64,000 bases of DNA, from contig CAWDKY010000030.1 in NCBI GenBank assembly GCA_963802945.1, positions 192,001 through 256,000 on the forward strand, written 5' to 3'. The stretch comes from an uncultured delta proteobacterium (lineage in GTDB: Bacteria > Desulfobacterota > RBG-13-43-22). Positions 27,782 through 42,414 of the stretch are shown in pieces. The notes under the pieces are model-generated. The model did no database searches, was not told the DNA's origin, and saw only the letters and a program-made list of their open reading frames with translations. The translations under genes were made by a program, and so were the position numbers. Position 1 is the stretch's first letter, and each line of letters starts with the position of its first letter.

Positions 27782-30218
27782 CTATTCGTTCTCCTTCTTC
27801 TCCTGATAGCCGCACTCTTTATTGGCGCAGGACCAGACCGTCCCGTCTTTTTTAGTCGTCTTCTCCACTAAAAAAGGGGCCTGGCATTGGGGGCAGGGTT
27901 CCATGACCGGCTTTCCCCAGATCATGAGTTTACATTCCGGATAGCGGCTGCAGCCGAAAAATTTCATGCCCTTTTTACGGGCCACTCGGGAGACCAGCAT
28001 CCCGGAACAGCCGGGCGTCGGGCAGGGAAACTCGGTGGTCACCGGCAGGGTCGATTTACATTTGGGGTATTTTTCACAGGCCAGAAAGGTCCCGCCAAAA
28101 CGGTTTTTTTTCACCACCATTGGGCCTCCGCACTTGGGACAGACCTGGTCGCTGACCGCCTTGGGGAGAGGCTCGGCAGGCTTCCCTTCGGAGGAAATCG
28201 GCTGTGTTTCTTTACAATCCGGATAACCCGAACAGGCCCAGAAAGATCCAAATCGTCCCTGGCGGACCACCATGGGTTTCCCGCACTGGGGACATTCTTT
28301 TCCCGAACCGTCGGATTGTGAGGTTTCCGCAGTCACCGGCTGGATCTTTCCTTTTTCATCCCGGACAAAATTTTGCGTTTGTTTGCAGGCCGGATACCCG
28401 GAACAGGCCAGAAAAGGCCCGTTTTTCCCAATACGGATGGTCATGGGTTTGCCGCAGGTCGGGCAGACAATATCGGTCTTTAGGCCCTTGCCCCGCACCT
28501 GTCTCATTTCCGCACGAGCCCGTTCCAGGGTCTGGGCAAAGGGCTGATAAAAATCCCCCAGAACCTTTGTCCACACCTGTTTTCCTTCTTCGATCTGATC
28601 CAGGTTGTTTTCCATCAGGGCAGTAAACTGGACATCGAGAATCTCGGGAAAATTTTTCACCAGGAGATCATTGACCAGAAAACCCAGTTCAGTGGGAAAG
28701 AAAAAATATTTTTCTTTTTTGACATAGTCTTTTTCTTGAATCGTAGAAATGATGGTCGCATAGGTACTGGGGCGGCCGATCCCTTTTTCTTCCAGCTCCT
28801 TGACCAGCGTGGCTTCGGTATAACGGGCAGGCGGCTGGGTAAAATGCTGTTTGGGGGTGATCTGAAGCAAGGTCAGTTTCTGATGAAGCTGAAGCCTGGG
28901 GAGCTGTCCTTTTTTTTCTTCCTCTTCTTCTTCCGAAGAAACAATATCTTTCCCGACTTCATAGACGGCCGTAAAACCGGGAAAACGCAAGACCGAGCCC
29001 GAAGCCCGAAGTAAATAGTCCCCGGCCTTGATATCCACTTGAGTCTGATCGAACAGGGCGGCCTTCATCTGACTGGCCACAAACCGATTCCAGATCAGAC
29101 GATAGAGGGCCAGTAGATCCTTATCCAGAAAGCGGGCCAGGGCATCCGGCCTTAAATTCATGGAAGTCGGACGAATGGCCTCATGGGCGTCCTGGGCCGA
29201 CTTTTTATTAGTATAGAAATGGGGTTTTCCGGGCACATATTCCGTTCCGAACTGTCCCTGGATATAGCTCCGAACGGCCGTCAGGGCCTCCTGTGAAACT
29301 CGGGTGGAATCGGTGCGCATATAGGTGATCAAGCCGACCAATCCCTCATCCCCCACCTCGACCCCTTCATAGAGCCGCTGGGCCAGAAACATGGTCTTCT
29401 TGGCCGGAAAACGCAATTTACGAAAGGCCTCTTGCTGTAATTGGCTGGTGGTAAAGGGAGGCAAGGGACTGCGTTTGCGTTCCTTCTTTTCGATGTTGAC
29501 AACCTGGAAAGGCTCTTGCGACAAGGCGGCTGCTGATTGTTTGGGCCTGTTCTTCATTGACGATCTTGACGGCCTTCCCCTGGGCTTTGATCAGCCTGGC
29601 TTCAAAGTCAGGGGGAATATTGGCCTGAAGCAAGGCGGTGATCGACCAATATTCTTTGGAAACAAAGGCCTGGATTTCCCGTTCCCGGTCGCAGATCAGT
29701 CGAACGGCCACAGACTGCACCCTGCCGGCGCTCAAGCCTCTTTTGACCTTATCCCAGAGCAGGGGAGAGATCTGGTATCCCACCAGTCGATCCAAAATGC
29801 GCCGGGCCAGTTGGGACTGAACACGTTGTTCATTCAACGCCTCCGGATGCGCCAGGGCTTCCTGAATCGCCTTGGGGGAAAGTTCGTTAAACAAAACCCG
29901 ATGGAATTCTTTATCCTTGCCGGCCAGCTCTTCGGCCAGATGCCAGGCAATGGCCTCTCCTTCGCGGTCCGGGTCCGGGGCCAGGTAAATATGACGAATC
30001 TTTTTCGCCGCCTGTTTGAGTTCTTTCAACACCCGGTCTTTTCCGGAAATAATCTGAAATTCAGGCTTGAATTTATTTTCAATATCCACTCCGAGCAGGT
30101 TGGTGGGCAAATCCTTAATATGTCCGAGTGAGGCCTTGACCTCAAACTCAGGACCCAGATATTTTTTAATGGTTCGAACCTTGGTAGGCGATTCTACAAT
30201 CAACAACGATTTTTCCAT
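27782..30218 (-). CDS. topA: DNA topoisomerase I with C-terminal C4 zinc ribbons (frameshift near 29530)
   Basis: LLIVESPTK, DPDREGEAIAWH, SAGRVQS, LITYMRTDS, QDAHEAIRPT, GIGRPSTY, five CPxC-type repeats. Confidence 0.98.
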
Positions 30219-30369
30219 TATTCCTTTTTCCATCATTCTCTAGAGTAATTGTTTTTCAAGAGAGGTCCTTGTAAATCTCGCAAATTCCGTCACACCGGCC
30301 CCGCATCAAGTGCGGGATAGACTCCAGCCGGTGTCCAGGAAGCACTGAAAAGACTGGATTCCGGCTTCC

Positions 30370-30557
30370 GAGACTGTGTCGTAATGGCAGATAGAGCCGT
30401 CAAGGCCGTCATGCCGGCGGAAGCCGGCATCCAGACGTCGTCCCGGCGAAAGCCGGGAACCAGACCCATATGGATTCCCCCGGATCGAGTCCGGGGCAGG
30501 CTCCTCGTCGCGCTTCGCTTGCACGGAATGACAAAAATATAATTGCGACACAGTCTC
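30370..30557. mobile_element. MITE (188 bp) inserted in a REP-like hairpin; 3-bp TSD TCC
   Basis: TIRs GAGACTGTGTCGTAAT / ATTGCGACACAGTCTC; flanks CTGGATTCCGGCT-TCC and TCC-GCCGGAATGAC; near-identical inverted copy at 41527-41721. Confidence 0.88.
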
Positions 30558-30666
30558 TCCGCCGGAATGACGTCACGGGACTCTTGCAAAAGGATCATGA
30601 GCAAAAATAAAAATCCAGCATCTAATATCCAGTATCAAGAATCCAGTATCCAGTATCAAACCCCTC

Positions 30667-31776
30667 TTACCCGCGAACGAACATTTTCCCCGGCAATTGT
30701 TTGATCAGGCCCTTGAGTTCCATTTCCAGCAGTAAAGACAACATTGGGGCAATCCCTATTCCGGCCTGCCGGACCATCTGATCCACGTGAAGGGACCCAT
30801 CGGCCAGGAGGTCCCATATTTGTTTTTCTTTCGAAGAAAGAGAAGAAATTCTGTCAGGGACTTTAGATTTTGTTTTCGGCCCAACCTCGTTGGGTGATTC
30901 CTCCCAATGAAGTTCCTCCAAAATGTCCCCGGCATGTTCCACCAACTTGGCCCCTTGTTTGATCAGGCTATGGGTTCCGGAACTTTTAAAGGATTCGACG
31001 CTTCCGGGAACGGCAAAGACCTCCCTCCCCTGCTCCAGAGCCAACCGGGCCGTAATCAAAGAGCCGCTGCGCTGCGTAGCTTCAACAATGACCACTCCCA
31101 GGGCCATCCCGCTGATAATCCTATTTCGGATTGGAAAATTTTGACGTTCCGGAAGTGTGCCCAGAGGAAACTCGGAACAGACCATACCCAAATCAACTAT
31201 GCGATCATAGAGCTTTTTATTTTCCGACGGATAAATAACATCCAGACCTGAACCAAGCACGGCCACGGTCCTGCCTTGGGCCATCAAGGCCCCTTGATGG
31301 GCTGCGGTATCGATACCTCGGGCCATCCCGCTGACAATAGTCAATCCTTTTTGAGATAAACCCCAGGCCAATCGTTCGGTCATTTTGATCCCATAAGGAG
31401 TCCCCATCCTGGAACCGACTAAAGACAGGCAGTGGCTATCCTGAGCGGCAGGGGAACCTTGGTAAAATAAATAAGGGGGAGGATCATGGATCTGGGCCAG
31501 GAGAGGAGGATAAAGAGGATCGGTTAAGGTCAAGATCCCTATCTTTTGCTTTTCCAGTTCATCCAGTTCCCGCTCAATTTTTTCAGCCCTTTTAAATTTG
31601 ACAATGGCCAGGGCGATATTTTTCCTCATCCCTTCGATAGATTGCAAATCCCCAGGGTCGGCCTGGAAAACCTTTTCAGGAGATCCATACCTCTCAATAA
31701 GACGGGCATAGCTGACCTTTCCTAATCCGGCGATCCGGTTCAAGGCCAGCCAGTAATAAAGGGATTTGCGATCCAT
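30667..31776 (-). CDS. dprA: DNA-processing protein DprA
   Basis: VGSR..T.YG, IVSGMARGIDTAAH, FPIRNRIISG, SGSLITA, GREVFAVPG. Confidence 0.97.
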   Translation of the reverse strand: MDRKSLYYWLALNRIAGLGKVSYARLIERYGSPEKVFQADPGDLQSIEGMRKNIALAIVKFKRAEKIERELDELEKQKIGILTLTDPLYPPLLAQIHDPPPYLFYQGSPAAQDSHCLSLVGSRMGTPYGIKMTERLAWGLSQKGLTIVSGMARGIDTAAHQGALMAQGRTVAVLGSGLDVIYPSENKKLYDRIVDLGMVCSEFPLGTLPERQNFPIRNRIISGMALGVVIVEATQRSGSLITARLALEQGREVFAVPGSVESFKSSGTHSLIKQGAKLVEHAGDILEELHWEESPNEVGPKTKSKVPDRISSLSSKEKQIWDLLADGSLHVDQMVRQAGIGIAPMLSLLLEMELKGLIKQLPGKMFVRG

Positions 31777-31898
31777 GGTCCTAAGAAAAAAAGTTTATAG
31801 TTCAGAGTTCGGAGTTCAGAGCTCGGAGTTCAGAGTGACCGCTTGGAGTGATAAGGCTTTTCGCCATGCTCGTAACTGCGAACTTGTCTTTGACTTAC

Positions 31899-32267
31899 TC
31901 AGGCCGGCTTCGTGGGTTGAGGAACCTCTTGTCCGGGCCCGGCTAAGCCGGAAACAAAACTCCTGGCCACTTTGATACGCACCTTGTCGGCCACTTCCAG
32001 GACGATAATATTATCATTAATCTCAGCAATCCGTCCGTAGATCCCTCCAGTGGTGATGACCGAGTCCCCTCGTTTCAGATTGCCCAACAATTCTCGATGT
32101 TGTTTGGCCTTTTTTTGTTGTGGCCGGATCAATAAAAAATAAAAAATCACGAACATCAAAACCAAGGGGATCAATCCGGTAAATCCCCCTGCTCCGGATC
32201 CCCCGGATCCTCCGGATCCTCCACCCGGAAGCCCCATGGCCTCGGCAACGGCAGTGAACAGATACAT
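31899..32267 (-). CDS. yajC: Preprotein translocase subunit YajC
   Basis: IFYFLLIRPQQKKAK, LKRGDSVITTGGIYG. Confidence 0.96.
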   Translation of the reverse strand: MYLFTAVAEAMGLPGGGSGGSGGSGAGGFTGLIPLVLMFVIFYFLLIRPQQKKAKQHRELLGNLKRGDSVITTGGIYGRIAEINDNIIVLEVADKVRIKVARSFVSGLAGPGQEVPQPTKPA

Positions 32268-32272
32268 AAACG

Positions 32273-33388
<1,116 letters not shown>

Positions 33389-33417
33389 TTAATTTTTGAC
33401 TATAAATCGCATTGTAC

Positions 33418-33535
33418 AGGCTGATCAAAAATGCACAGATGAAAGGCGCCAAAAATTCCGTGAAATGAGGCGTACACATAAGTACGCCGCAATGACGAGG
33501 GATGAAGCCAACACAGCAGAGGGGTATTTTGATCG
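33418..33535. repeat. Dispersed intergenic repeat (homologue of 22505-22650)
   Basis: See the 22505 entry; begins GGCTGATCAAAAAT and ends ATTTTGATCGC (imperfect inverted ends). Confidence 0.75.
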
Positions 33536-33634
33536 CGCTACATCTCGGCTCATTGCCACCTTTTCGAGCGGTGGTTAGATCTGTCTGTTAGTTTATCCTT
33601 CTGAATTCTGACTCCTGGATTCTGGATTCTTGTT

Positions 33635-34701
33635 TTATAGAATCAACATCGCATCGCCATAACTGTAGAACCGATAATTCCGCTCAATCGCCTCCTGGTA
33701 GGCTTTCAGAATTTTTTCCCGTCCGGCAAAGGCGGACACCAATAACATCAGGGTAGTCCTGGGCAAATGAAAGTTGGTGATCAACCCGTCGATCATTTGA
33801 AAAGAGAAACCCGGAGTGATGAAAAGATCACACTCTCCCTCTTCGGCCTTAACCAATCCATATTTCATGGCCTGGTATTCCAAGACCCGGGCGCTGGTGG
33901 TTCCCACGGCGATAATCCGTCCTCCCTGTTTTTTTTGTTCCTGTATCACTTGGACGGCCTGCGCCGAGACCTTGTAAACCTCAGAATGCATCTTATGCTC
34001 GGCAATCTTTTCCGTCTTGACGGGGGCAAAGGTCCCATAACCGACATGCAAGGTAAGGGGAACCCAAAATATGCCCTTGTCCTTAAGGGCCGCAATCAAA
34101 TCCAAAGAAAAATGAAGTCCGGCCGTAGGTGCCGCCACCGCCCCTGGATGTCGGGCATACACGGTTTGATAGCGTTTCCGATCCTGTTCCCAAAGACCGG
34201 CCTCACAGCCGTCTCTGCGGATATACGGCGGAAGAGGAACCCGGCCGAATTTTTTTAAAACAGAATCAAACAGCCCTTTGAAATGGAATCGAACCAGGGC
34301 CGTCCCATTTGGGGAAGGAGGCAGTATCTCACCTTCCAGACCTTCACCAAAATAAATTTGCTCCCCGGCCTAATTTTCCCTCCAGATTTAATCAGACAAG
34401 GGCTCGTATAGGTTTGTTCAATCGCCAAGGCCGGATATTTCAAGATCAGACATTCCACCCGGCCCCCGCTCCTTTTCTTCCCTTCCAAACGCGCCGGGAT
34501 CACCTGGGTATCGTTAACCACCAGTACATCCCCCGGAGACAGGTATTCGATAACTTGATTAAAGCGTTGATGTTTCCGGTCCCCTGTCTTTCGATCCAGA
34601 ACTAAAAGTCGGGAATGATCTCTCTCAGGACAAGGCTCCTGAGCTATCAAATGCGGAGGCAAAATAAAATCAAATTGGGATAAAGTTAGTAAATCATCCA
34701 T
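33635..34701 (-). CDS. queA: SAM:tRNA ribosyltransferase-isomerase QueA (frameshifted)
   Basis: LIAQEP...RD.SRLL, NDTQVIPARL, AAPTAGLHF, LHVGYGTF, TNFHLP, YRFYSYGDAM. Confidence 0.97.
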
Positions 34702-34997
34702 AGATTAAAAAAAGATAAAGATAATAGCCTTTAATATACTTCCGGCCTCTTGTCAAGCCAAGCTGCCAATGGCCTCCTGTCTTTAACATTTTCGGTTAGT
34801 AAGGGTCTCATAAGCATAATGAGCCCGTTTGGTTGCCGGGGGCCGAATAGCTTTTATGCTGTAACGGGGTTAATAAGGGAGCCTAGTCTATTGTTGAATC
34901 CGTTGATATTTCACTGAAGGCATCGAGGTGTCGACCAAGACCACGATGAGCGAGGTTTGAAGCTCACTAAGTTTTACATCCTAAGTTTAAAGAAATA

Positions 34998-35984
34998 TTA
35001 GAATCGAAATAAAGCCGCTCCCCAGGTAAAGCCGGCTCCAAAGGAAGCGGTCAAGACCAGATCACCCCTTCGAACTTGTCCGCTTCGAACCGCTTCATCC
35101 AGGGCCGTGGGAATGGTGCCCACCGAGGTATTGCCATATTTGTGTACGGTGACGATCACTTTTTCCATAGGAATTTTTAACTGTTTAGCCACGGACTCCA
35201 TGATCCTGATATTGGCCTGATGCGGGATAAACCAATCGATTTGGTGTGCGGTAATACCGCCGGATTTCATGGCCTTCCGAGCGGCATCGCTCATGGAGCG
35301 AACGGCATGTTTGAAGACTTCATTTCCCTGCATCTTGATATAATGAAGGCCGGCTTCGATCATAGGAATTGAAATGGGATTACGGGAACCGCCTCCGGGC
35401 ACATTGAGCAATTCCCACAGATTCCCATCGGAATGGATCTCAAGAGACAGGATTTCTCCATCTCCTTTGCCTTTGGAATGGCCCAAAACGACAGCCCCGA
35501 CCCCATCACCAAAAAGGACACAGGTAGCCCGGTCCTGATAATCAATCCGGTGGGAAATGATTTCACCACCGACGACCAGGACGTGCTGATAAGAACCGTC
35601 CTGCATAAACTTTTGGGCAACGGTCAAAGCATAGATGAACCCCGGACAGGCGGCATTGACATCAAAGGCGACCGCATTTTTTGCACCAAGTCGATATTGG
35701 AGAATACAACCCTCTGAAGGCGAAGTCATATCGGCCGTGGAGGTCCCGACAATAATCAGATCCAAATCTTTGGGAGAAAGGCCGGCCATTTCCAAAGCAT
35801 TTTCACAAGCCGGGGTGGCGATATCAGATAAGGCCTGCCCGGGCAGGACCATTCTCCGTTCCCGAATGCCGGTCCGGCTGAATATCCATTCATCGGAGGT
35901 ATCCACAATCTTTGCAAAATAGGAGTTGGGTACTATTCTTTCGGGCAAATAACAACCCGTTCCTTTAATACTTATTTTTTTCAC
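34998..35984 (-). CDS. fabH: Beta-ketoacyl-ACP synthase III
   Basis: DTSDEWI..RTGI, AACPGF, PHQANIRI, YGNTS, FGAGFTWG. Confidence 0.96.
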   Translation of the reverse strand: MKKISIKGTGCYLPERIVPNSYFAKIVDTSDEWIFSRTGIRERRMVLPGQALSDIATPACENALEMAGLSPKDLDLIIVGTSTADMTSPSEGCILQYRLGAKNAVAFDVNAACPGFIYALTVAQKFMQDGSYQHVLVVGGEIISHRIDYQDRATCVLFGDGVGAVVLGHSKGKGDGEILSLEIHSDGNLWELLNVPGGGSRNPISIPMIEAGLHYIKMQGNEVFKHAVRSMSDAARKAMKSGGITAHQIDWFIPHQANIRIMESVAKQLKIPMEKVIVTVHKYGNTSVGTIPTALDEAVRSGQVRRGDLVLTASFGAGFTWGAALFRF

Positions 35985-36304
35985 CTAACAAAAACCTTTC
36001 ACTTATTTTTTTGAACAATAAGGATTGCCGTTCACAAAGCTAAAGAGGAACTCTGAAGCTCCCTGAAGCAACTACGGGGAATGCGATCGTTAGGCCTTAT
36101 CAAAGAAAACCATTAAGGTTGAAGGCCATATAACATATATAAAAATATTTTTCAAAATAATTTTATCTTATTTCAGAATAAATTGGCTTTGTCTAAAAAG
36201 TATGATATAAAAATCAAGCTTTTTTAATCATCGTTCCTTCTCGAACCCTTGGATAACAGTGGAAAATATCAGAAACATCTATCCTGCCCGAATGGGATCC
36301 TTAC

Positions 36305-37075
36305 ATGTGGATTGATTCTCACGCCCATTTGGAAATGAAAGCATTTGACCCGGATCGCCCTCAGGTGATTGAGCGGGCCGCTGCCAAGGGGATAACCGGG
36401 ATCATCACCATCGGGACCGACGCGGAAAGCAGTCGCCAGGCGGTGGCTTTAGCCAAAACCTACAAAAATATTTGGGCTACGGTCGGCGTCCACCCCCATG
36501 AGGCCGCCTCTTATAAAACAGAAACCCAGCCCCAATTATCTCAATTGGCCGAAGATCCTTTAGTGGTGGCCATCGGAGAAATCGGGCTGGATTTTTATCG
36601 CAACCTTTCCCCACAAAAGCAGCAAAAAGAAACCTTTCGTCATTTGATTCATTTGGCGCGGGCCGTGAATCTTCCCATCATCATTCACGACCGGGAGGCC
36701 CATGAAGAAGTGCTGGCGATTTTAAGAGAGGAAAAGGCCGGGGAGGTCGGAGGGGTTTTCCACTGCTTTTCCGGTGATTGGGCCATGGCCAAGCAGTGTT
36801 TGGATTTGAACTTTTTTCTGTCCGTCACCGGGGCCGTTACCTACAAAAATGCCGGGGTGTTGGAAGAGGTCGTCCGCCGAGCCCCCATCGAATCCCTGCT
36901 TCTGGAAACCGATGCCCCGTTTCTTTCTCCTCATCCCTTTAGAGGTAAACGGAATGAACCGGCCTATCTGGTCCACACCGCAGAACACGTGGCCCGGATT
37001 AGTAACATCACTCTGTCTGAATTAAGTCAGGTGGTCTTGAAAAACACCTGTCGGGCCTTTAAGCTTCCGTTGTAA
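36305..37075 (+). CDS. tatD: TatD family DNase
   Basis: DSHAHL, GVHPH, IGEIGLD, IIHDREA, VFHCFSG, LETDAP. Confidence 0.95.
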   Translation: MWIDSHAHLEMKAFDPDRPQVIERAAAKGITGIITIGTDAESSRQAVALAKTYKNIWATVGVHPHEAASYKTETQPQLSQLAEDPLVVAIGEIGLDFYRNLSPQKQQKETFRHLIHLARAVNLPIIIHDREAHEEVLAILREEKAGEVGGVFHCFSGDWAMAKQCLDLNFFLSVTGAVTYKNAGVLEEVVRRAPIESLLLETDAPFLSPHPFRGKRNEPAYLVHTAEHVARISNITLSELSQVVLKNTCRAFKLPL

Positions 37076-37128
37076 AATAGGTTCATGATCCTGAACAATT
37101 AACGACAAATCATGAGATAGGAATTGCA

Positions 37129-37722
37129 ATGGAATCTCCTTTCTTCATTATCCTGGCCTCTGGTTCACCCAGAAGAAAGGCCTTGCTTGCGGATTTGGAT
37201 CTTCATCTTAAAATCGTTTCAACCGGGATTCCGGAAGAACCTGAACCCGATGAATCACCGCTGATTTTTTCCAAACGGATGGCCCGAAGGAAAACCGAGA
37301 TGGTTTCCGCCGCCTTTCCCAAACAATGGGTTTTAGGGGCCGACACTGTGGTCCATCTGGGAGAAAAAATATTGGGTAAACCTAAAAATCCCCGAGAAGC
37401 AAAAAGGTTTCTCCAGACTTTAAGCGGGAAAACTCACCGGGTGATTACCAGTTTCTGTCTAAGAAATCGAGAGATGAATCAAAACATCATCCAAAGTTCT
37501 ACTACCAGGGTAAGTTTCAAATCCTTAACCAACCAAGAGATCGACTGGTATGTCCGAACCGGAGAACCTTTGGACAAGGCCGGTGCTTATGCCATCCAGG
37601 GTAAGGGGGCTTTCTGTGTCAAGAAAATTTACGGTTCTTATACCAATGTGGTGGGCCTTCCGGTAACTGAGGTTTTGGAAGCCTTAATCCACTATGCGGG
37701 TTTTCAGTTTAGAAAACCATAG
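37129..37722 (+). CDS. maf: Maf family nucleotide pyrophosphatase
   Basis: ILASGSPRR, GADTVV, LGKP, DKAGAYAIQG, NVVGLP. Confidence 0.95.
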   Translation: MESPFFIILASGSPRRKALLADLDLHLKIVSTGIPEEPEPDESPLIFSKRMARRKTEMVSAAFPKQWVLGADTVVHLGEKILGKPKNPREAKRFLQTLSGKTHRVITSFCLRNREMNQNIIQSSTTRVSFKSLTNQEIDWYVRTGEPLDKAGAYAIQGKGAFCVKKIYGSYTNVVGLPVTEVLEALIHYAGFQFRKP

Positions 37723-37847
37723 TTATTAATACTAGATAATAATCTGAACGGTTTAAGGATACATTTTCTTCCGTGGGGAGGCTCGAAGAGAACCAACCCA
37801 CTTTCAGCCTTGCGTTTTGAGCTGGCCCAGTAAAAGGATAAAAAAAG

Positions 37848-38531
37848 ATGGATAGTTTAGTTCTTTCCTTACAACAGATTCAAGAAAGGATAAAATCGGC
37901 CTGCATCAGGGCCGGGAGAAAACCCGAAGAAGTTTTACTGGTCGCAGTAACCAAGACCGTTCCGGTTGAACGGATTCAAGAAGGAATCCGGGAAGGTTTA
38001 GGCTATTTTGGAGAGAATTATATCCAGGAAGCCCAAAATAAAATTGAATATCTTAATCAAGGGACCTGGCATTTTATCGGTCATTTGCAAAAAAATAAGG
38101 CCAAGCAAGCAGTAAAGTTTTTTTCTATGATAGAAACTCTGGATAGTTTGCCTTTGGCCCGGGAATTAAATCGTCAGGCCCTTCAGGCCGGTAAAACCAT
38201 CGAAGTACTCATTCAGGTGAATGAGGCTGAAGAATCCAGCAAGTCCGGTATAACCCCCGAGCTGGTCCCTAACTTATTAAAAGAACACCTGGACTGGCCG
38301 GCCTTGCGCCTTCGGGGTTTGATGACCATCCCTCCCTATGATCCTGATCCGGAAAAATCCCGCCCCTGGTATCGCTCGCTGTCTCAGTGGCAAAAAAAAT
38401 GGCAGCAACAATTTCCTGAAATGGATCTAACCCATCTTTCCATGGGCATGTCCCATGACTTTGAGGTGGCTATTGAGGAAGGGGCGACAATCATACGGAT
38501 AGGCACGGCCATTTGGGGAGCCAGGGATTAA
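37848..38531 (+). CDS. yggS: PLP homeostasis protein YggS
   Basis: LVAVTKT, FGENYIQE, WHFIGHLQKNK, LSMGMSHDFEVAIEEGAT. Confidence 0.96.
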   Translation: MDSLVLSLQQIQERIKSACIRAGRKPEEVLLVAVTKTVPVERIQEGIREGLGYFGENYIQEAQNKIEYLNQGTWHFIGHLQKNKAKQAVKFFSMIETLDSLPLARELNRQALQAGKTIEVLIQVNEAEESSKSGITPELVPNLLKEHLDWPALRLRGLMTIPPYDPDPEKSRPWYRSLSQWQKKWQQQFPEMDLTHLSMGMSHDFEVAIEEGATIIRIGTAIWGARD

Positions 38532-38675
38532 TACCTTAACTTAACTTCCATGATTAAAATGGGTACACTGCAACCTATATTAGGCTTGGGAATCGGCCTA
38601 AGCTAACCGCTTCAATTCCCGTTTGCCTTTTTTATTATTTAATGCTAATCCCATTTTAGTGCGAGAATAAAAAAC

Positions 38676-38925
38676 AAGAATCCAGAAGCCAGGAGTCAGA
38701 ATCCAGAAGAAAGACTTTTGACTTCTTGATTCTAAATTTTATTTTTATGCTCCGTGGTACTCTGCCCATGACAAGGCATGAGGATTTATCACGAAAATAT
38801 GAATATTAAATTTTAAATCATGAATGGATTGGTTTCTTATTAACTTCGACATTCAATATTCATTATTCGATATTCGACATTTTTATGCTTCGTGGTCCCC
38901 TTCAAGAAGCCTGAGGGTTTAGTCT
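38676..38925. repeat. Cluster of heptamer repeats including heptamer-armed element copy 2
   Basis: GAATCCA/GAAGCCA/GGAGTCA run; ATGAATGGATTGGTTTCT core at 38820-38837; TTTTATGCT(C/T)CGTGGT twice. Confidence 0.75.
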
Positions 38926-39010
38926 GCTCAATAGGCCTTCGAGGTAAAAATCAACCCTAAGCATCAAAATGACCTTTGTAAACACCTAAGGATTGTTAAA
39001 CAGGAGGGAT

Positions 39011-41437
39011 ATGTCAAGAAGAGCATTGGAAGGTATTAAGGTCGTGGAATATGCGACGATGGTCTCCGGTCCCTATTGCGGTAAGTTGTTGGCCGATCTG
39101 GGGGCCGACGTCATCAAAGTGGAACCGCCGGAAGGCGATCCGTCACGCCGCTGCGGGCCTTTTCCGAAAGACAGAAAACACCCGGAAAAAAGCGCCCTTT
39201 TCCTTTACGCCAACACTAGTAAACGAGGCATCACCCTGGATATTGAAAATCCGGAAGGGCTTGAGGCCTTTAAAAAACTCCTCCTCTGGGCGGATGTTTT
39301 CATCGATAATCATCCTGTGGGTTTTTTTGATAATCTGGGTCTCGGTTGGGATGACCTGCATTGCTTAAACCCGGGGCTTATCTATGCTTCCATCACCCCT
39401 TACGGCCGTACCGGCCCCAGGGCCAAGGCCAAGGGAGATGAGCTTACCCTCATCCAGGCCGGCGGCGAAGGCAATCTCATACCGGCCCGATCCTTTGACC
39501 TATCCTTTCCTCCCGTCAAGTTCGGAAGTTATCAGGTGGGCTACCACGGTGCCCTGAACGCCGCCGTGGGCATCATGGCCTTGATTTTAGGCCGAATGAA
39601 AACCGGCCAAGGACACCTTTTGGATATCTCCCTACAGGAAGTGGTCATCAACCTGCTTCATGGAACCCTGCATAACCACCGCTATGACGGCTTTACCTGG
39701 AGTCGTGTCCCTGACAGGCCCCCGGCCATGGGCCGGATGGAAACCAGCGACGGCTATATCACCCTGGGGGCCAATGACGATCACCATTTCCATGCCCTTC
39801 GGGAATTAATGGGTATGCCGGACTGGCTGGCCGACGACCGTTGGGACAACCGGGTCTATCGAGCCAACCATTTACCGGAGGTTGCCGCTAAAATGGATGC
39901 CTGGATGAAGCAGCAAAAAAGAAATGAAATCTACCATAAGTTGGCCAAGGCAGGCATCCCGGTCGGACCAATCAATTCGGCTGAGGACGTCATGAACAAT
40001 GAACAATACAAAGCCAGGCAATATTTCATTGAAGTCGAGCATCCCGTGGCCGGCAAATACTCCTATGCCGGATGGCCTTACAAAATGACCGCCTCTCCGC
40101 CGGAGGTATCCAGACCGGCCCCACTCCTGGGACAGCACAATGAAGAGGTCCGCCTGGAAATCATCGACCGGGAACCTAAAGGGCAAGCCAAACCGGGTAA
40201 AGCCTATCAAGATCTCAAGCTTCCGCTCCAGGGCATAAGGATCCTCGATTTTTCCTGGGTTTGGGCAGGTCCTTACTCTACCATGATGCTGGGCAATCTT
40301 GGGGCCGAAGTGATCAAAGTGGAAGGGCATAAAAGGACGGATATCATCCGTCGCGCCGTTATGTGGCCGCGGTGGGAACCGGAGCCCCACCAGGTACCGC
40401 CCAACCAGGGATTGAGCTACAATTCCGTCAACCGGGACAAGAAAGGCGTTACCCTCGACCTGAGCAAGCCGGAAGGCATCAAACTGGCCAAGAGGCTGGC
40501 GGCCATGAGTGATATCGTCATTGATAATATGCGGCCAGATGCCATGGCCAAAATGGGTCTGGGTTATCAGGACCTGATTAAGATCAAACCCGACCTGGTG
40601 GTGGTTTCTTCATCCGGCCGGGGTCACGGCGGCCCGGAAACGAACTATCTCGGTTTTGCCACCATTCACCAGAGCGTTTCAGGTGTGGCCTATCTATCCG
40701 GTTATCCCGAGGATCATCCCACCTTCGGGTCCTTAGGCCACACAGACATCACCAGCGCCGTCACCACCGCCTTTATCACCCTGGCCGCGCTCCATCACCG
40801 GATCAAGACGGGTGAGGGGCAGTTCGTTGATTATTCCCAGTGCGAAGGTTCAACCAATATGATCGGGGAACAACTGCTCGGCTATCTGATGACCGGCATT
40901 ATTCCCGAACGGCAGGGCAACGCCCATCCCGAATATGCCCCTCATAATATGTATAAGTGCTGGGGTGTGGACCGCTGGTTGGCCCTGGAAATCCATACGG
41001 ATGAAGAATTTCAGGCCCTGACCCGGGTTATGAACCAACCCGAATTGGCCGATGACCCGCGATTTGATAGGCAGGCCTCCCGAAAAAAAAATGAAAAGGA
41101 ACTGGATCAGATCATCGGGGAATGGACCCGACAAAGAGATCGGGACTGGATGGTCGAAGAATTCATAAAGGCCGGATTGGCCGCCGCACCCTCACGGGAC
41201 GCAGAAGATATCTATGCCGATCGCCACTTGCAGGCCCGGAATTTTTTTATCAAGGTTCAACATCCCGAATTAGGGGAACTGGAATTGGCCGGACTGCCCT
41301 GGAGGATCAGCGACATTGAATTGCCCTCCGGCCATGCCCCTTTGTTGGGTGAGCATAATCAATATGTGCTGCAGGAACTTCTGGGTTTAAGCAACGAAGA
41401 GATTGCCGAGCTTCGCACCAAGGAAATCATCATGTAG
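39011..41437 (+). CDS. Family III (CaiB/BaiF) CoA-transferase, fused double domain
   Basis: Two halves, each with L.GI.V/I.., GP, LGADVIKVE/LGAEVIKVE and APLLG.HN. Confidence 0.94.
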   Translation: MSRRALEGIKVVEYATMVSGPYCGKLLADLGADVIKVEPPEGDPSRRCGPFPKDRKHPEKSALFLYANTSKRGITLDIENPEGLEAFKKLLLWADVFIDNHPVGFFDNLGLGWDDLHCLNPGLIYASITPYGRTGPRAKAKGDELTLIQAGGEGNLIPARSFDLSFPPVKFGSYQVGYHGALNAAVGIMALILGRMKTGQGHLLDISLQEVVINLLHGTLHNHRYDGFTWSRVPDRPPAMGRMETSDGYITLGANDDHHFHALRELMGMPDWLADDRWDNRVYRANHLPEVAAKMDAWMKQQKRNEIYHKLAKAGIPVGPINSAEDVMNNEQYKARQYFIEVEHPVAGKYSYAGWPYKMTASPPEVSRPAPLLGQHNEEVRLEIIDREPKGQAKPGKAYQDLKLPLQGIRILDFSWVWAGPYSTMMLGNLGAEVIKVEGHKRTDIIRRAVMWPRWEPEPHQVPPNQGLSYNSVNRDKKGVTLDLSKPEGIKLAKRLAAMSDIVIDNMRPDAMAKMGLGYQDLIKIKPDLVVVSSSGRGHGGPETNYLGFATIHQSVSGVAYLSGYPEDHPTFGSLGHTDITSAVTTAFITLAALHHRIKTGEGQFVDYSQCEGSTNMIGEQLLGYLMTGIIPERQGNAHPEYAPHNMYKCWGVDRWLALEIHTDEEFQALTRVMNQPELADDPRFDRQASRKKNEKELDQIIGEWTRQRDRDWMVEEFIKAGLAAAPSRDAEDIYADRHLQARNFFIKVQHPELGELELAGLPWRISDIELPSGHAPLLGEHNQYVLQELLGLSNEEIAELRTKEIIM

Positions 41438-41526
41438 AAAAACATCGGAAAGGATAAAGCGAGGACGATCTTTCCCTTTTTATAATTAACCCCATAAATA
41501 GGTGTGCATATTGTCATTCCGGCGAA

Positions 41527-41721
41527 GAGACTGTGTCGCAATTATATTTTTGTCATTCCGTGCAAGCGAAGCGCGACGAGGAGCCTGCCCCGGACTCGAT
41601 CCGGGGGAATCCAGGGGGGATATAGGTCTGGTTCCCGGCTTTCGCCGGGACGACGTCTGGATGCCGGCTTTCGCCGGCATGACGGCTTTGATGGCGCTGT
41701 CCGCTATTACGACACCGTCTC
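41527..41721. mobile_element. MITE (195 bp) inserted in a REP-like hairpin; 3-bp TSD GAA
   Basis: GTCATTCCGGC-GAA [GAGACTGTGTCGCAAT...ATTACGACACCGTCTC] GAA-AGCCGGAATCCAG. Confidence 0.88.
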
Positions 41722-41856
41722 GAAAGCCGGAATCCAGTGTTTGAAATTCCCTGGATGCCGGATCGGGCCTGCCCCGTACTTGATACGGGGTCCGGCATGA
41801 CGTTTTAGGACATGCATCTTATAAAAAATAATTTATGTCGTTTCTATAAGCTAGTT

Positions 41857-42414
41857 TTATTTTATCCGTTGGGCAATCACCTTAAAGGCCTCGGTCCCGG
41901 CCCGTTCCAGGACTTGAAACAAAACCGTCTCAGTAGTGGTGATAACGGCGCCGGCATCCCGCATCATTTCAAGACCGGACCTGAAATTGTTTTTGGTCCT
42001 TGAACAAACCGCATCCTGGGCCACCTGGACATTATAGCCTTCCTGCATCAATCCAATGCTGGTCTGTAATACACAAACGTGCGTTTCCATGCCGGTCAGA
42101 AGCCATTTTTTTCTGCCCGTGTCTGCGACCTTTTCCAGAAACCCTGCTTCCAGGCAACAATTAAACGCCGTTTTCTCAAAAGGGTTATACGCCGGGAGGG
42201 CCTCCTGGATTTCCGGAATGGTCGTCCCCAGCCCTTGGGGGTATTGTTCGGTCAGAAGAATAGGGATTTGTAGGAGCTTGGCCAGTTCAACCAGATGCAG
42301 GCAGTTGTTGACCACCTGATCCTTGTGCTTCATGACCGCAGCCAGTTTGCCCTGAATGTCGATGATCAACAGGGCCATTTCTTGCTGATTCAAGGAAAAT
42401 TTATCCATGGGCAT
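41857..42414 (-). CDS. Isochorismatase-family hydrolase
   Basis: LLIIDIQ.KL, TEQYP.GLG.T, K.AF.C, GMETHVCVLQT, DAVCSR. Confidence 0.92.
   Translation of the reverse strand: MPMDKFSLNQQEMALLIIDIQGKLAAVMKHKDQVVNNCLHLVELAKLLQIPILLTEQYPQGLGTTIPEIQEALPAYNPFEKTAFNCCLEAGFLEKVADTGRKKWLLTGMETHVCVLQTSIGLMQEGYNVQVAQDAVCSRTKNNFRSGLEMMRDAGAVITTTETVLFQVLERAGTEAFKVIAQRIK

Follow-up and report, generated by a model that had tools for sequence, protein, structure and literature searches.

Hairpin targeting is established for members of the IS1182 family, and insertion sequences that land in REPs are known as well. IS1272 and TnSha1 of staphylococci, both of the IS1182 family, insert in either orientation into hairpin targets with little sequence conservation (PMC4923244). 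IS1272 is described as cutting within the stem or at its base, so that the hairpin is lost in part or in full and no duplication arises. The published model predicts a loop-only duplication as one pathway, and this 'pathway c' is drawn only as a possibility in the 2017 paper (PMC5678879).

REPs are transposition hot spots used with high target selectivity by elements of the IS110, IS4, IS256 and IS5 families. The REP-targeting elements named are ISPpu9, ISPa11, ISRm22 and others, and the five families in that source's list do not include IS1182 (PMC1525189). IS110-type elements have no TIRs and follow another chemistry. The IS3-family elements IS1397 and ISKpn1 insert into the loop and duplicate 3-4 bp. 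Their insertion is specific to REP palindromic units (PMC1525189). The CGTC-tagged REPs of Di Nocera et al. (2013) have a CGTC head, a GC-rich stem, a 4- or 5-nt loop and an unpaired CCA tail, are frequently dimers and occur mostly in Alphaproteobacteria; that paper reports no dedicated transposase for them and makes no mention of MITEs that target them (PMC3733652). In QMITE2 of Coxiella burnetii, the MITE-borne REP is the landing site of IS1111, an element of the DEDD type (PMC10969869). The term 'IS1182' does not occur in a 2024 review of prokaryotic MITEs, and full-text literature searches brought up no description of a MITE derived from IS1182 or of insertion into a loop with duplication.

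The window, that is the whole stretch of 64,000 nucleotides that was analysed, contains two copies of a non-autonomous MITE, which is very probably moved in trans by an IS1182-family DDE transposase into the loops of hairpins or palindromes. The family resembles IS1272 and TnSha1 in its IS1182 affiliation (its full-length relatives match NF033551), its 16-bp terminal repeats and its use of varied hairpin-forming inverted repeats in both orientations (PMC4923244; PMC5678879). Unlike IS1272, it leaves both arms in place on inserting into the loop, with 3 (to 5) bp duplicated; the protein is distant and the abundant form here is a MITE. Loop insertion plus duplication is the distinguishing detail of the family. 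With IS1397 and ISKpn1 the MITE shares the specific insertion into REPs, whereas these elements have an IS3 transposase with two ORFs and different ends and are autonomous. Membership of that group was rejected, as the ends read GAGAC...GTCTC, not TG...CA, and the matching full-length protein is of the IS1182 type. The target REP corresponds to the CGTC-tagged description (PMC3733652). In contrast to QMITE2, it is the MITE that inserts here, into REPs of the genome, and the REPs that it carries do not serve as landing sites in this genome. The Chunjie MITE of Geobacter differs, with 21-bp TIRs and 9-bp repeats (PMC3184786).

Table 1. Coordinates of the two MITE copies in the window, their split REP hairpins and the neighbouring and internal REPs.
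Feature	Position	Strand	Details
Partner REP, in the same REPIN-like doublet as the host of copy 1	30289..30338	+	loop occupied by a ~29-nt hairpin module CCCGCATCAAGTGCGGGATAGACTCCAG
Split REP hairpin around copy 1	30354..30366	-	CTGGATTCCGGCT; other half GCCGGAATGAC at 30561-30571
Target duplication of copy 1	30367..30369 (left), 30558-30560 (right)	.	TCC; junctions CTGGATTCCGGCT-TCC / TCC-GCCGGAATGAC
MITE copy 1	30370..30557	-	long form, 188 bp; TIRs 30370-30385 (+), 30542-30557 (-)
REP inside copy 1	30408..30434	+	ATGCCGGC stem, GGAA loop
Second internal REP of copy 1	30436-30462		
Split REP hairpin around copy 2	41513..41523	+	GTCATTCCGGC; other half AGCCGGAATCCAG at 41725-41737
Target duplication of copy 2	41524..41526 (left), 41722-41724 (right)	.	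GAA; junctions GTCATTCCGGC-GAA / GAA-AGCCGGAATCCAG
MITE copy 2	41527..41721	+	long form, 195 bp; TIRs 41527-41542 (+), 41706-41721 (-)
REP inside copy 2	41657..41683	-	ATGCCGGC stem, GAAA loop
Partner REP adjoining copy 2	41751..41801	-	loop occupied by a 30-nt hairpin module ACCCCGTATCAAGTACGGGGCAGGCCCGAT

The anatomy of the two copies bore out the original prediction of two near-identical elements with 16-bp TIRs that interrupt the same loop position with different duplications. Both end in the inverted repeat GAGACTGTGTCGYAAT; its pattern matches the window four times (Table 1), against 0.01 expected from shuffles. Aligned with their flanks, the copies have a mean column identity of 93% and a single 7-bp indel. 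The same hairpin is split at the same loop position in both, and the 3-bp duplications differ. The predicted REP-like hairpins inside the element are also present: the three internal REPs of Table 1 fold as DNA at -9.2 to -10.4 kcal/mol (z -3.5 to -5.9). Rfam gave no match at E<=0.1 over 29800-42300.

A genome-wide scan for the TIR with up to 3 mismatches gave 63 matches, which resolve into 22 two-ended elements of 124-195 bp. BLAST added about six degenerate or truncated copies, for a family of about 28 in the genome, with a short form of 142 bp and a long form of about 190 bp. These elements are short, non-coding and multi-copy, with TIRs, target-site duplications and flanks outside the hairpin that are unrelated between copies except for REP-unit repeats, as expected of a MITE. 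The copies outside the window do not sit at random sites: genome-wide, 19/22 two-ended copies interrupt a canonical REP of the CGTC type in its loop, two lie in atypical REP palindromes (two GTCAT-type arms, without duplication) and one in another hairpin. The claim that the element targets the loop of REP-like hairpins therefore holds well beyond the window. Under strict half-site rules, 15 of the 22 show a perfect 3-bp duplication and the remaining seven do not, four of them being off by one base. In four-nucleotide loops, the duplicated triplet is always the first three loop bases (16/16), whichever way the MITE lies. A search of the genome for interrupted REPs found none whose loop holds an element longer than 195 bp with these TIRs and a duplication.

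The same behaviour extends to other genomes. Among 19 two-ended copies of three sister species, 16 have perfect duplications and, by our reading, 17 appear to lie in ATTCC-type REPs and two in unrelated hairpins. In other phyla, among the matches listed, the same TIR bounds at least 58 two-ended elements in at least 55 loci. Perfect duplications are present in 27/58 of these, and the flanks form perfect stems of at least 6 bp, of varying sequence, in 26/58 (45%), against 16% of shuffled flank pairs.

In the proposed mechanism, an IS1182-family transposase would bind the terminal inverted repeats GAGACTGTGTCGYAAT and join the MITE to a DNA hairpin or palindrome at its loop. With a stagger of 3 nt between the cuts in the target, the loop triplet would be duplicated and both stem arms kept. 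The preferred REP target would itself belong to REPIN-like doublets, and the aligned paralogous loci do show doublets of this kind, bounded by outer inverted repeats.

The elements that could encode such a transposase occur elsewhere. IS1182-family members are 1.3-2 kb long, with TIRs and a single ORF of about 450-520 aa. In other genomes of the phylum, hairpin loops hold full-length elements of 1689-1762 bp that have a 484-aa ORF and the ends of the MITE. L177/L186 (1701 bp, TIRs GAGGCTGTGTCACAAT/GAGGCTGTGTCGTAAT) duplicate AAA within CCTCGCCT...AGGCGAGG. L188 and L189 carry the exact GAGACTGTGTCGCAAT end and are sited in C-rich/G-rich hairpins of about 20 bp, and L187 resembles them; the L190 contig starts and finishes at TIRs, and the visible flank of L195 carries a REP half-site. 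The L177 transposase scores 343 bits against NF033551, 'IS1182 family transposase' (cut-off 270), contains DUF772, DDE_Tnp_1_6 and DDE_Tnp_1 domains, and its type is at most 35% identical to the plasmid-borne transposases annotated as IS1182. The presence elsewhere of full-length elements that have the same ends and sit in hairpin loops supports the prediction that the MITE ends belong to an IS1182-family DDE transposon. MITE and full-length elements have only their ~17-18 terminal bases in common, so the MITE is no simple deletion derivative of those seen. The duplication varies within the family, with 3 bp in the present genome, 4 bp in L057/L058 and 5 bp in L189.

The original prediction had proposed a DDE transposase acting in trans on IS5/IS1182-like ends, and an autonomous element with the same ends was to be sought. 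The IS1182 part stood, and autonomous elements were found in the phylum (L177/L186, L188, L189, L190); the transposase itself was not found in the assembly or the order. A tblastn search of the assembly with the L177 transposase returned only IS1182 copies of 24% identity, on contigs C17, C33 and C30, the last of them broken. No close homologue at E<=1e-30 came from the other 20 genomes of the order, one of which holds broken pieces that are 29% identical. The driver is consequently one that we infer, as we do the recent movement of these copies and the mode of hairpin recognition; such a transposase, absent from the assembly, would have moved these particular copies. Other candidates were discarded. 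IS5-like small transposases (PF13359 and PF13586) have no match in the genome, the other PF01609 loci of the genome have unrelated ends, and the IS1182 of sister genome G008 (10 copies) has ends TAGGAGTCTGTCGGACTTAAAT that are related to those of the MITE and not the same. A separate question is whether the target REPs belong to a REPIN/RAYT system, with a Y1 (RAYT) transposase flanked by REPs. Of ten Y1_Tnp matches in the genome, only two near-identical IS200-like loci have REPs close by, seemingly just adjacent.

It is improbable that the resident IS1182 elements, rather than a missing cognate, moved the MITE. The C17 and C33 copies encode the only intact IS1182-family transposases of the assembly (490 aa, NF033551 329 bits), and a CTGT..C..AA(A)T core is common to their ends and those of the MITE. 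However, the ends of these copies, like the ones of C30, read TAGGGTCTGTTGCCSAAAT and match GAGACTGTGTCGYAAT at only a minority of positions, the proteins are as distant as stated above from the transposase that carries matching ends, and no obvious hairpin is present in the flanks of the C17 and C33 elements themselves.

Still less probable is that the copies are old relics, immobile since before the lineage arose, with targeting an effect of survival only in neutral REP sites. The failure to find the cognate transposase in 21 genomes of the order would fit such an age, as would the degenerate or truncated copies. Against it, the median pairwise identity is 97.9% among the 13 copies of the short form, some pairs being identical, and survival bias cannot give a fixed position in a 4-nt loop with a matching duplication. 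The closest relative, G005, is 87-95% identical in the flanking genes and has no MITE at either locus, and its genome holds one TIR-like match, with two mismatches. G005 lacks the entire REP cluster at both loci and hence provides no empty REP; no orthologous empty REP was found. In this MITE-free genome a single contig carries both flanking loci, about 10 kb from each other, which rejects a reading of the 11 kb between the window copies as a composite transposon. In public sequencing runs, at most 0.16 of the sampled words matched and the assembled contigs covered mainly repeats. One such contig joins 30367 to 30561; its shorter side has 38 letters, it may be a paralogue or stem from another organism, and it was given no weight.

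The preferred reading of independent insertions by an IS1182-family transposase is also favoured by paralogous empty sites. The REPIN-like repeat that hosts the C28:70088 copy is uninterrupted in three copies (C33, C42, C65), and its TTG is single in these and double at the filled site; for window copy 1, an uninterrupted paralogue with a GGAA loop was found. Together with both orientations and unrelated flanks, such sites argue for the independence that had been predicted and not for one duplicated composite. That REP arms and inner element spread as one unit, the arms being longer terminal repeats with no targeting, is hardly credible: the common orientation of the window copies relative to the hairpin means that these two alone would not exclude it, and the REPs look mobile and are missing from G005 together with the MITE, but the genome-wide set does exclude it, with 12 copies lying one way and 7 the other in the 19 canonical targets, a triplet that follows the local loop variant (GAA, GGA, TTG, TCC), hosts of various REP subtypes and non-REP hairpins, the three uninterrupted paralogues and 135 REPs free outside MITEs.

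The preferred target is one CGTC-type REP subtype, GTC-ATTCCGGC-GAAA-GCCGGAAT-CCAG, and its close variants. Strict REPs number 168 (0.10% of the genome; 5 in the reversed-genome control), with GAAA loops in 104, CTTGA loops in 32 and a C before GTC in 112/168; the search itself demanded GTC and CCA, which leaves the leading C, the loops and the count as independent features. These are high-copy short palindromes of the CGTC type, with its CGTC head, its CCA tail and a loop of 4-5 nt. The MITE copies of the genome carry 33 REPs, and none of them is occupied. All canonical targets (19/19) have ATTC-type stems, and the MITE-internal REPs are of the ATGCC or GTCCC type; all 23 ATGCCGGC REPs of the genome sit within MITE copies. 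The notion that each insertion supplies new targets, as in a self-amplifying system, is thus not supported in the present genome, where the carried REPs belong to unused stem subtypes; MITE-in-MITE nesting was seen in another MAG.

In the known cases of hairpin targeting by IS1182-family DDE transposases (IS1272), insertion destroys the target. In the MITE family the target is left intact and each event is marked by a loop duplication, so that dozens of natural insertions from several phyla can be read directly. One genome offers used REPs (ATTC stems) and unused ones (ATGCC, GTCCC and ACCCC stems) that are one to a few bases apart. This contrast is a simple, testable substrate set for structure versus sequence recognition. 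For annotation, MITE-in-REP insertion explains nested intergenic repeat clusters of uncultured anaerobes, which could otherwise pass for regulatory RNAs. More speculative, and in our judgement rather unlikely, is that the transposase would read DNA shape (the loop of an extruded hairpin or cruciform) with a fixed, hairpin-polar stagger of 3 nt, and that the MITE would seed a private REP subtype exempt from insertion. The families of MITEs and of REPs would in that case evolve together, and MITEs could found REP families.

The element under study is a MITE that seeks hairpin loops and has IS1182-type ends; the finding is real and the core of the original prediction is right. The pattern GAGACTGTGTCGYAAT has four matches in the window against 0.01 expected from shuffles, and the terminal inverted repeats (TIR) bound elements of 188 bp (copy 1) and 195 bp (copy 2). 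With the flanks included, the mean column identity of both copies is 93%, with a single 7-bp indel. The sequences bordering copy 1 are CTGGATTCCGGCT-TCC and TCC-GCCGGAATGAC, and those bordering copy 2 are GTCATTCCGGC-GAA and GAA-AGCCGGAATCCAG. The same hairpin is cut at the same loop position with differing 3-bp direct repeats, and the earlier description of two inverted-end elements that split one hairpin's loop was correct. Relative to the hairpin both copies have the same orientation, so the window pair alone could not exclude a duplicated composite.

MITE ends and modified REP hairpins located in the window
Feature	Position in window	Type	Source
TIR pair of MITE copy 1	30370-30385 / 30542-30557	inverted pair	pattern search
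TIR pair of MITE copy 2	41527-41542 / 41706-41721	inverted pair	pattern search
REP with hairpin module in place of loop	30289-30338		G000 search
REP with hairpin module in place of loop	41751-41801		G000 search

The whole assembly (G000; 4.37 Mb, 72 contigs), in which the window occupies C30:192001-256000, was scanned for the TIR with up to three mismatches, and the 63 matches yielded 22 two-ended elements. BLAST added a copy on contig C25 with a decayed right end, copies with decayed ends on C12, C53 and C17, and two truncated right halves (C53:56110 and C32:56472). The short form of the MITE (142 bp, n=13) has a median pairwise identity of 97.9%, some pairs being identical, and the long form (about 175-195 bp) one of 96.7% among the 8 copies compared. 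The forms have the first 51 and the last 66 bases in common and differ in their interiors, which are made of REP-like hairpins in both, as had been claimed. One long and one short copy (C53:18269-18443 and C53:157065-157188) carry an identical 18-bp deletion, also present in the truncated copy C32:56472, by which the internal ATGCCGGC REP has lost its stem-loop (CTGG|ATGAC). Either precise loss of the REP or repeated slippage mediated by the hairpin may account for it. A further family of small elements lies beyond the window (C30:9068 and C34:38997); its ends, GAGCCTAGGTCGCAAT / GAGACTTTGTCACAAT, are related to those of the MITE, and its REP-bearing interior is different.

Tabulation of the targets and duplications of all TIR copies confirmed REP-loop targeting genome-wide: among the 22 copies with two ends, 19 interrupt the loop of a canonical REP hairpin. 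Two others (C16:187334-187475 and C53:99754-99937) have a GTCAT-type arm on each side and no duplication. These may be recombination products between copies or insertions in symmetric REP variants; the reciprocal CCAG/CCAG products of such recombination were not seen. The remaining copy (C16:299260) lies in another, imperfect hairpin. Under strict half-site rules the 3-bp duplication is perfect in 15/22 copies and one base off in 4 more. The MITE is oriented one way relative to the REP in 12 cases and the other way in 7. The duplicated triplet tracks the local loop (GAA or GGA in GNAA, TTG in CTTGA, TCC in TCCA), and wherever the loop has four nt (16 of 16 cases), the duplication comprises its first three bases, read in the GTC-to-CCAG direction, regardless of MITE orientation.

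The strict REP search, which required GTC, an 8-bp stem allowing one mismatch, a loop of 3-7 nt and CCA, found 168 hairpins in the assembly, covering 0.10% of the bases, versus 5 in the reversed genome. A C precedes the GTC in 112 of the 168, and the loop is GAAA in 104 and CTTGA in 32; since GTC and CCA were preset, independent evidence comes only from the number of hairpins, their loops and the C at the head. These REPs fit the CGTC-tagged REPs in the account of Di Nocera et al. (PMC3733652), which have a CGTC head, a 4-5 nt loop and a CCA tail and are described there as often dimeric and without a dedicated transposase. In alignments, the REPs are held in REPIN-like doublets composed of two inverted REPs, a spacer and the outer inverted repeats GCAAAAAGTC...GACTTTTTGC. 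The doublets (about 110-130 bp) occur in the C28:70088 region, on C33, C42 and C65, and at 30283-30600 of the window; in the closest relative (G005) the orthologous intergenic regions lack them, and the assembly yielded no RAYT-like gene with these doublets on its flanks. At 24 loci the REP loop is replaced by a 28-30-nt hairpin module of two types (CCCGCATCAAGTGCGGGATAGACTCCAG and ACCCCGTATCAAGTACGGGGCAGGCCCGAT), with neither duplication nor TIR evident. Paralogous doublets show a plain TTC loop where the module sits in others, and the long MITE form contains a related module.

The doublet holding the C28:70088 copy has three uninterrupted copies elsewhere (C33, C42 and C65) whose flanks match it at every base; these empty doublets have a single TTG, whereas the occupied doublet has two, one at each end of the MITE. 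Copy 1 also has an uninterrupted paralogue, whose GGAA loop agrees with the GGA duplication of copy 1. The empty paralogues, the occurrence of both orientations and the variety of duplications jointly exclude derivation of the loci from one duplicated composite, and the insertions were independent, as first proposed. A composite transposon formed by the 11 kb that separate copies 1 and 2 is ruled out since a single contig of G005 carries both loci at a distance of about 10 kb. That genome, whose flanking genes are 87-95% identical, has neither the MITE nor any of the REP cluster at both loci and has a single TIR-like match, with two mismatches, genome-wide.

Across genomes, the same TIR is found in hairpins with varied stems, among them CCCTCTCCC/GGGAGAGGG, CCCCTCCC/GGGAGGGG, CCCTCGGC/GCCGAGGG and several REP types. 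Among the matches listed, a perfect stem of at least 6 bp stands beside the duplication in 26/58 pairs (45%), against 16% of shuffled flank pairs, a control inflated because many loci share stem types. In three sister species the duplications are perfect in 16 of 19 two-ended copies and, on inspection, 17 of the 19 occupy REPs of ATTCC type and the other 2 hairpins of unrelated sequence. The canonical targets of the assembly are all ATTC-type stems (19/19; 18 ATTCC and one ATTCT facing an ATTCC-complementary arm), whereas the ATTCC type makes up only 69 of the 135 unoccupied REPs that lie outside MITEs (one-sided Fisher test, p = 9e-6, with hand-entered occupied counts). The two lines diverge, and from varied stems elsewhere and uniform stems here it seems that the hairpin is necessary, with an additional stem preference in a given host. 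This preference may be read by the protein or may reflect stem stability.

The suggestion that each insertion supplies new targets, in a self-amplifying manner, was not borne out in this genome. The MITE copies contain 33 of the 168 strict REPs, including every ATGCCGGC REP that the genome has (23) and 9 of its 11 GTCCCGGC REPs, and not one of these 33 has received an insertion. With an even spread over 187 REPs (168 intact and 19 split), about 3.4 of the 19 insertions are expected in the 33, and by arithmetic the chance of zero is about 0.03. Consequently, insertions in this genome have not made used targets. Nesting was seen in another MAG (L057 and L058), where a 141- or 168-bp copy with a 4-bp duplication sits in a GAAA REP loop inside a larger copy, so nested insertion is possible within the MITE family.

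No element longer than 195 bp was found in any REP loop of the assembly, and PF13359 and PF13586 have no match in it; its PF01609 loci were rejected as the driver, their ends differing from those of the MITE. The TIR scan of species-representative genomes (596 Gb) gave at least 121 stretches. About a thousand chance matches are expected by arithmetic for this 16-mer in 596 Gb, so single matches carry little weight. True relatives among the matches listed comprise at least 58 two-ended elements in at least 55 loci, by record title mostly Syntrophales, Smithella and 'Deltaproteobacteria' MAGs, and further Nitrospirota, Binatia, Tectomicrobia and Udaeobacter. At the single-hit locus L051, in a Muribaculaceae MAG, this end belongs to a 1.9-kb element whose transposase has DUF772 and DDE_Tnp_1_6 domains. 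The end GAGGCTGTGTCGTAATTAAG..TTACGGCGCAGCCTC is common to five loci in Bacteroidales records (L049, L051, L061, L063 and L088), so the same TIR type extends to Bacteroidota; in L051 it bounds an IS1182-family element.

The L051 protein, as a query against 401 genomes of the window's phylum, retrieved L177, a 1701-bp element with ends GAGGCTGTGTCACAAT/GAGGCTGTGTCGTAAT inserted as CCTCGCCT-AAA-IS-AAA-AGGCGAGG, which is a hairpin loop with a 3-bp duplication. Its transposase (P0001, 484 aa) scores 343 bits on NF033551 'IS1182 family transposase' (cut-off 270) and has matches in 13 of the 401 genomes (E<=1e-40); five genomes besides the source genome G216 encode proteins 58-76% identical to it. 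Among these, L188 (1689 bp) and L189 (1731 bp) have the exact GAGACTGTGTCGCAAT end and lie in loops of about 20-bp C-rich/G-rich hairpins, with ACTGG duplicated in L189. L187 resembles them except that its left end is decayed, the contig of L190 (1762 bp) starts and stops at the TIRs, and L195 has a REP half-site on its sole visible flank. In the assembly, the only tblastn matches of P0001 were IS1182 copies of 24% identity, on C17, on C33 and, in broken form, on C30; the ends of the resident copies read TAGGGTCTGTTGCCSAAAT. No close homologue (E<=1e-30) was found in any of the 20 other genomes of the order, and G005 has broken pieces 29% identical to P0001. The sister species G008 carries a multi-copy IS1182-family element (10 loci, L151-L163; 457-471-aa ORF) whose left end, TAGGAG(T/C)CTGTCGGACTTAAAT, is related to the MITE ends yet distinct. 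The proposal of a trans-acting DDE transposase therefore stands in part: full-length elements with the same ends occur in hairpin loops of other genomes (L177, L188 and L189), but none occurs in this assembly. These shared ends make IS1182 well supported as the family of the transposase that would move the MITE in trans, and such a driver is presumed for this organism.

IS1397 inserts in the loop of REPs and duplicates 3-4 bp. Elements of the IS3, IS110, IS4, IS256 and IS5 families are known to target REPs, as stated in PMC1525189. Within the IS1182 family, IS1272 and TnSha1 are described as entering hairpins of low sequence conservation in both orientations, with part or the whole of the hairpin deleted and without duplication (PMC4923244; PMC5678879), and a 2015 review, as cited in both, has palindromes targeted by some IS1182 members. 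In contrast, the MITE inserts in the loop with a 3-bp duplication; a loop-only duplication is drawn in PMC5678879 (2017) as a hypothetical pathway. IS1182 is not mentioned in a 2024 review of prokaryotic MITEs, and a full-text literature search returned no IS1182-derived MITE or loop insertion with duplication, though a named ISfinder relative may exist. The MITE, whose transposase is missing from the assembly, is abundant in this lineage and appears to have expanded recently; its interest lies in the duplication at loop insertion, the selectivity for a REP subtype and the REP cargo.
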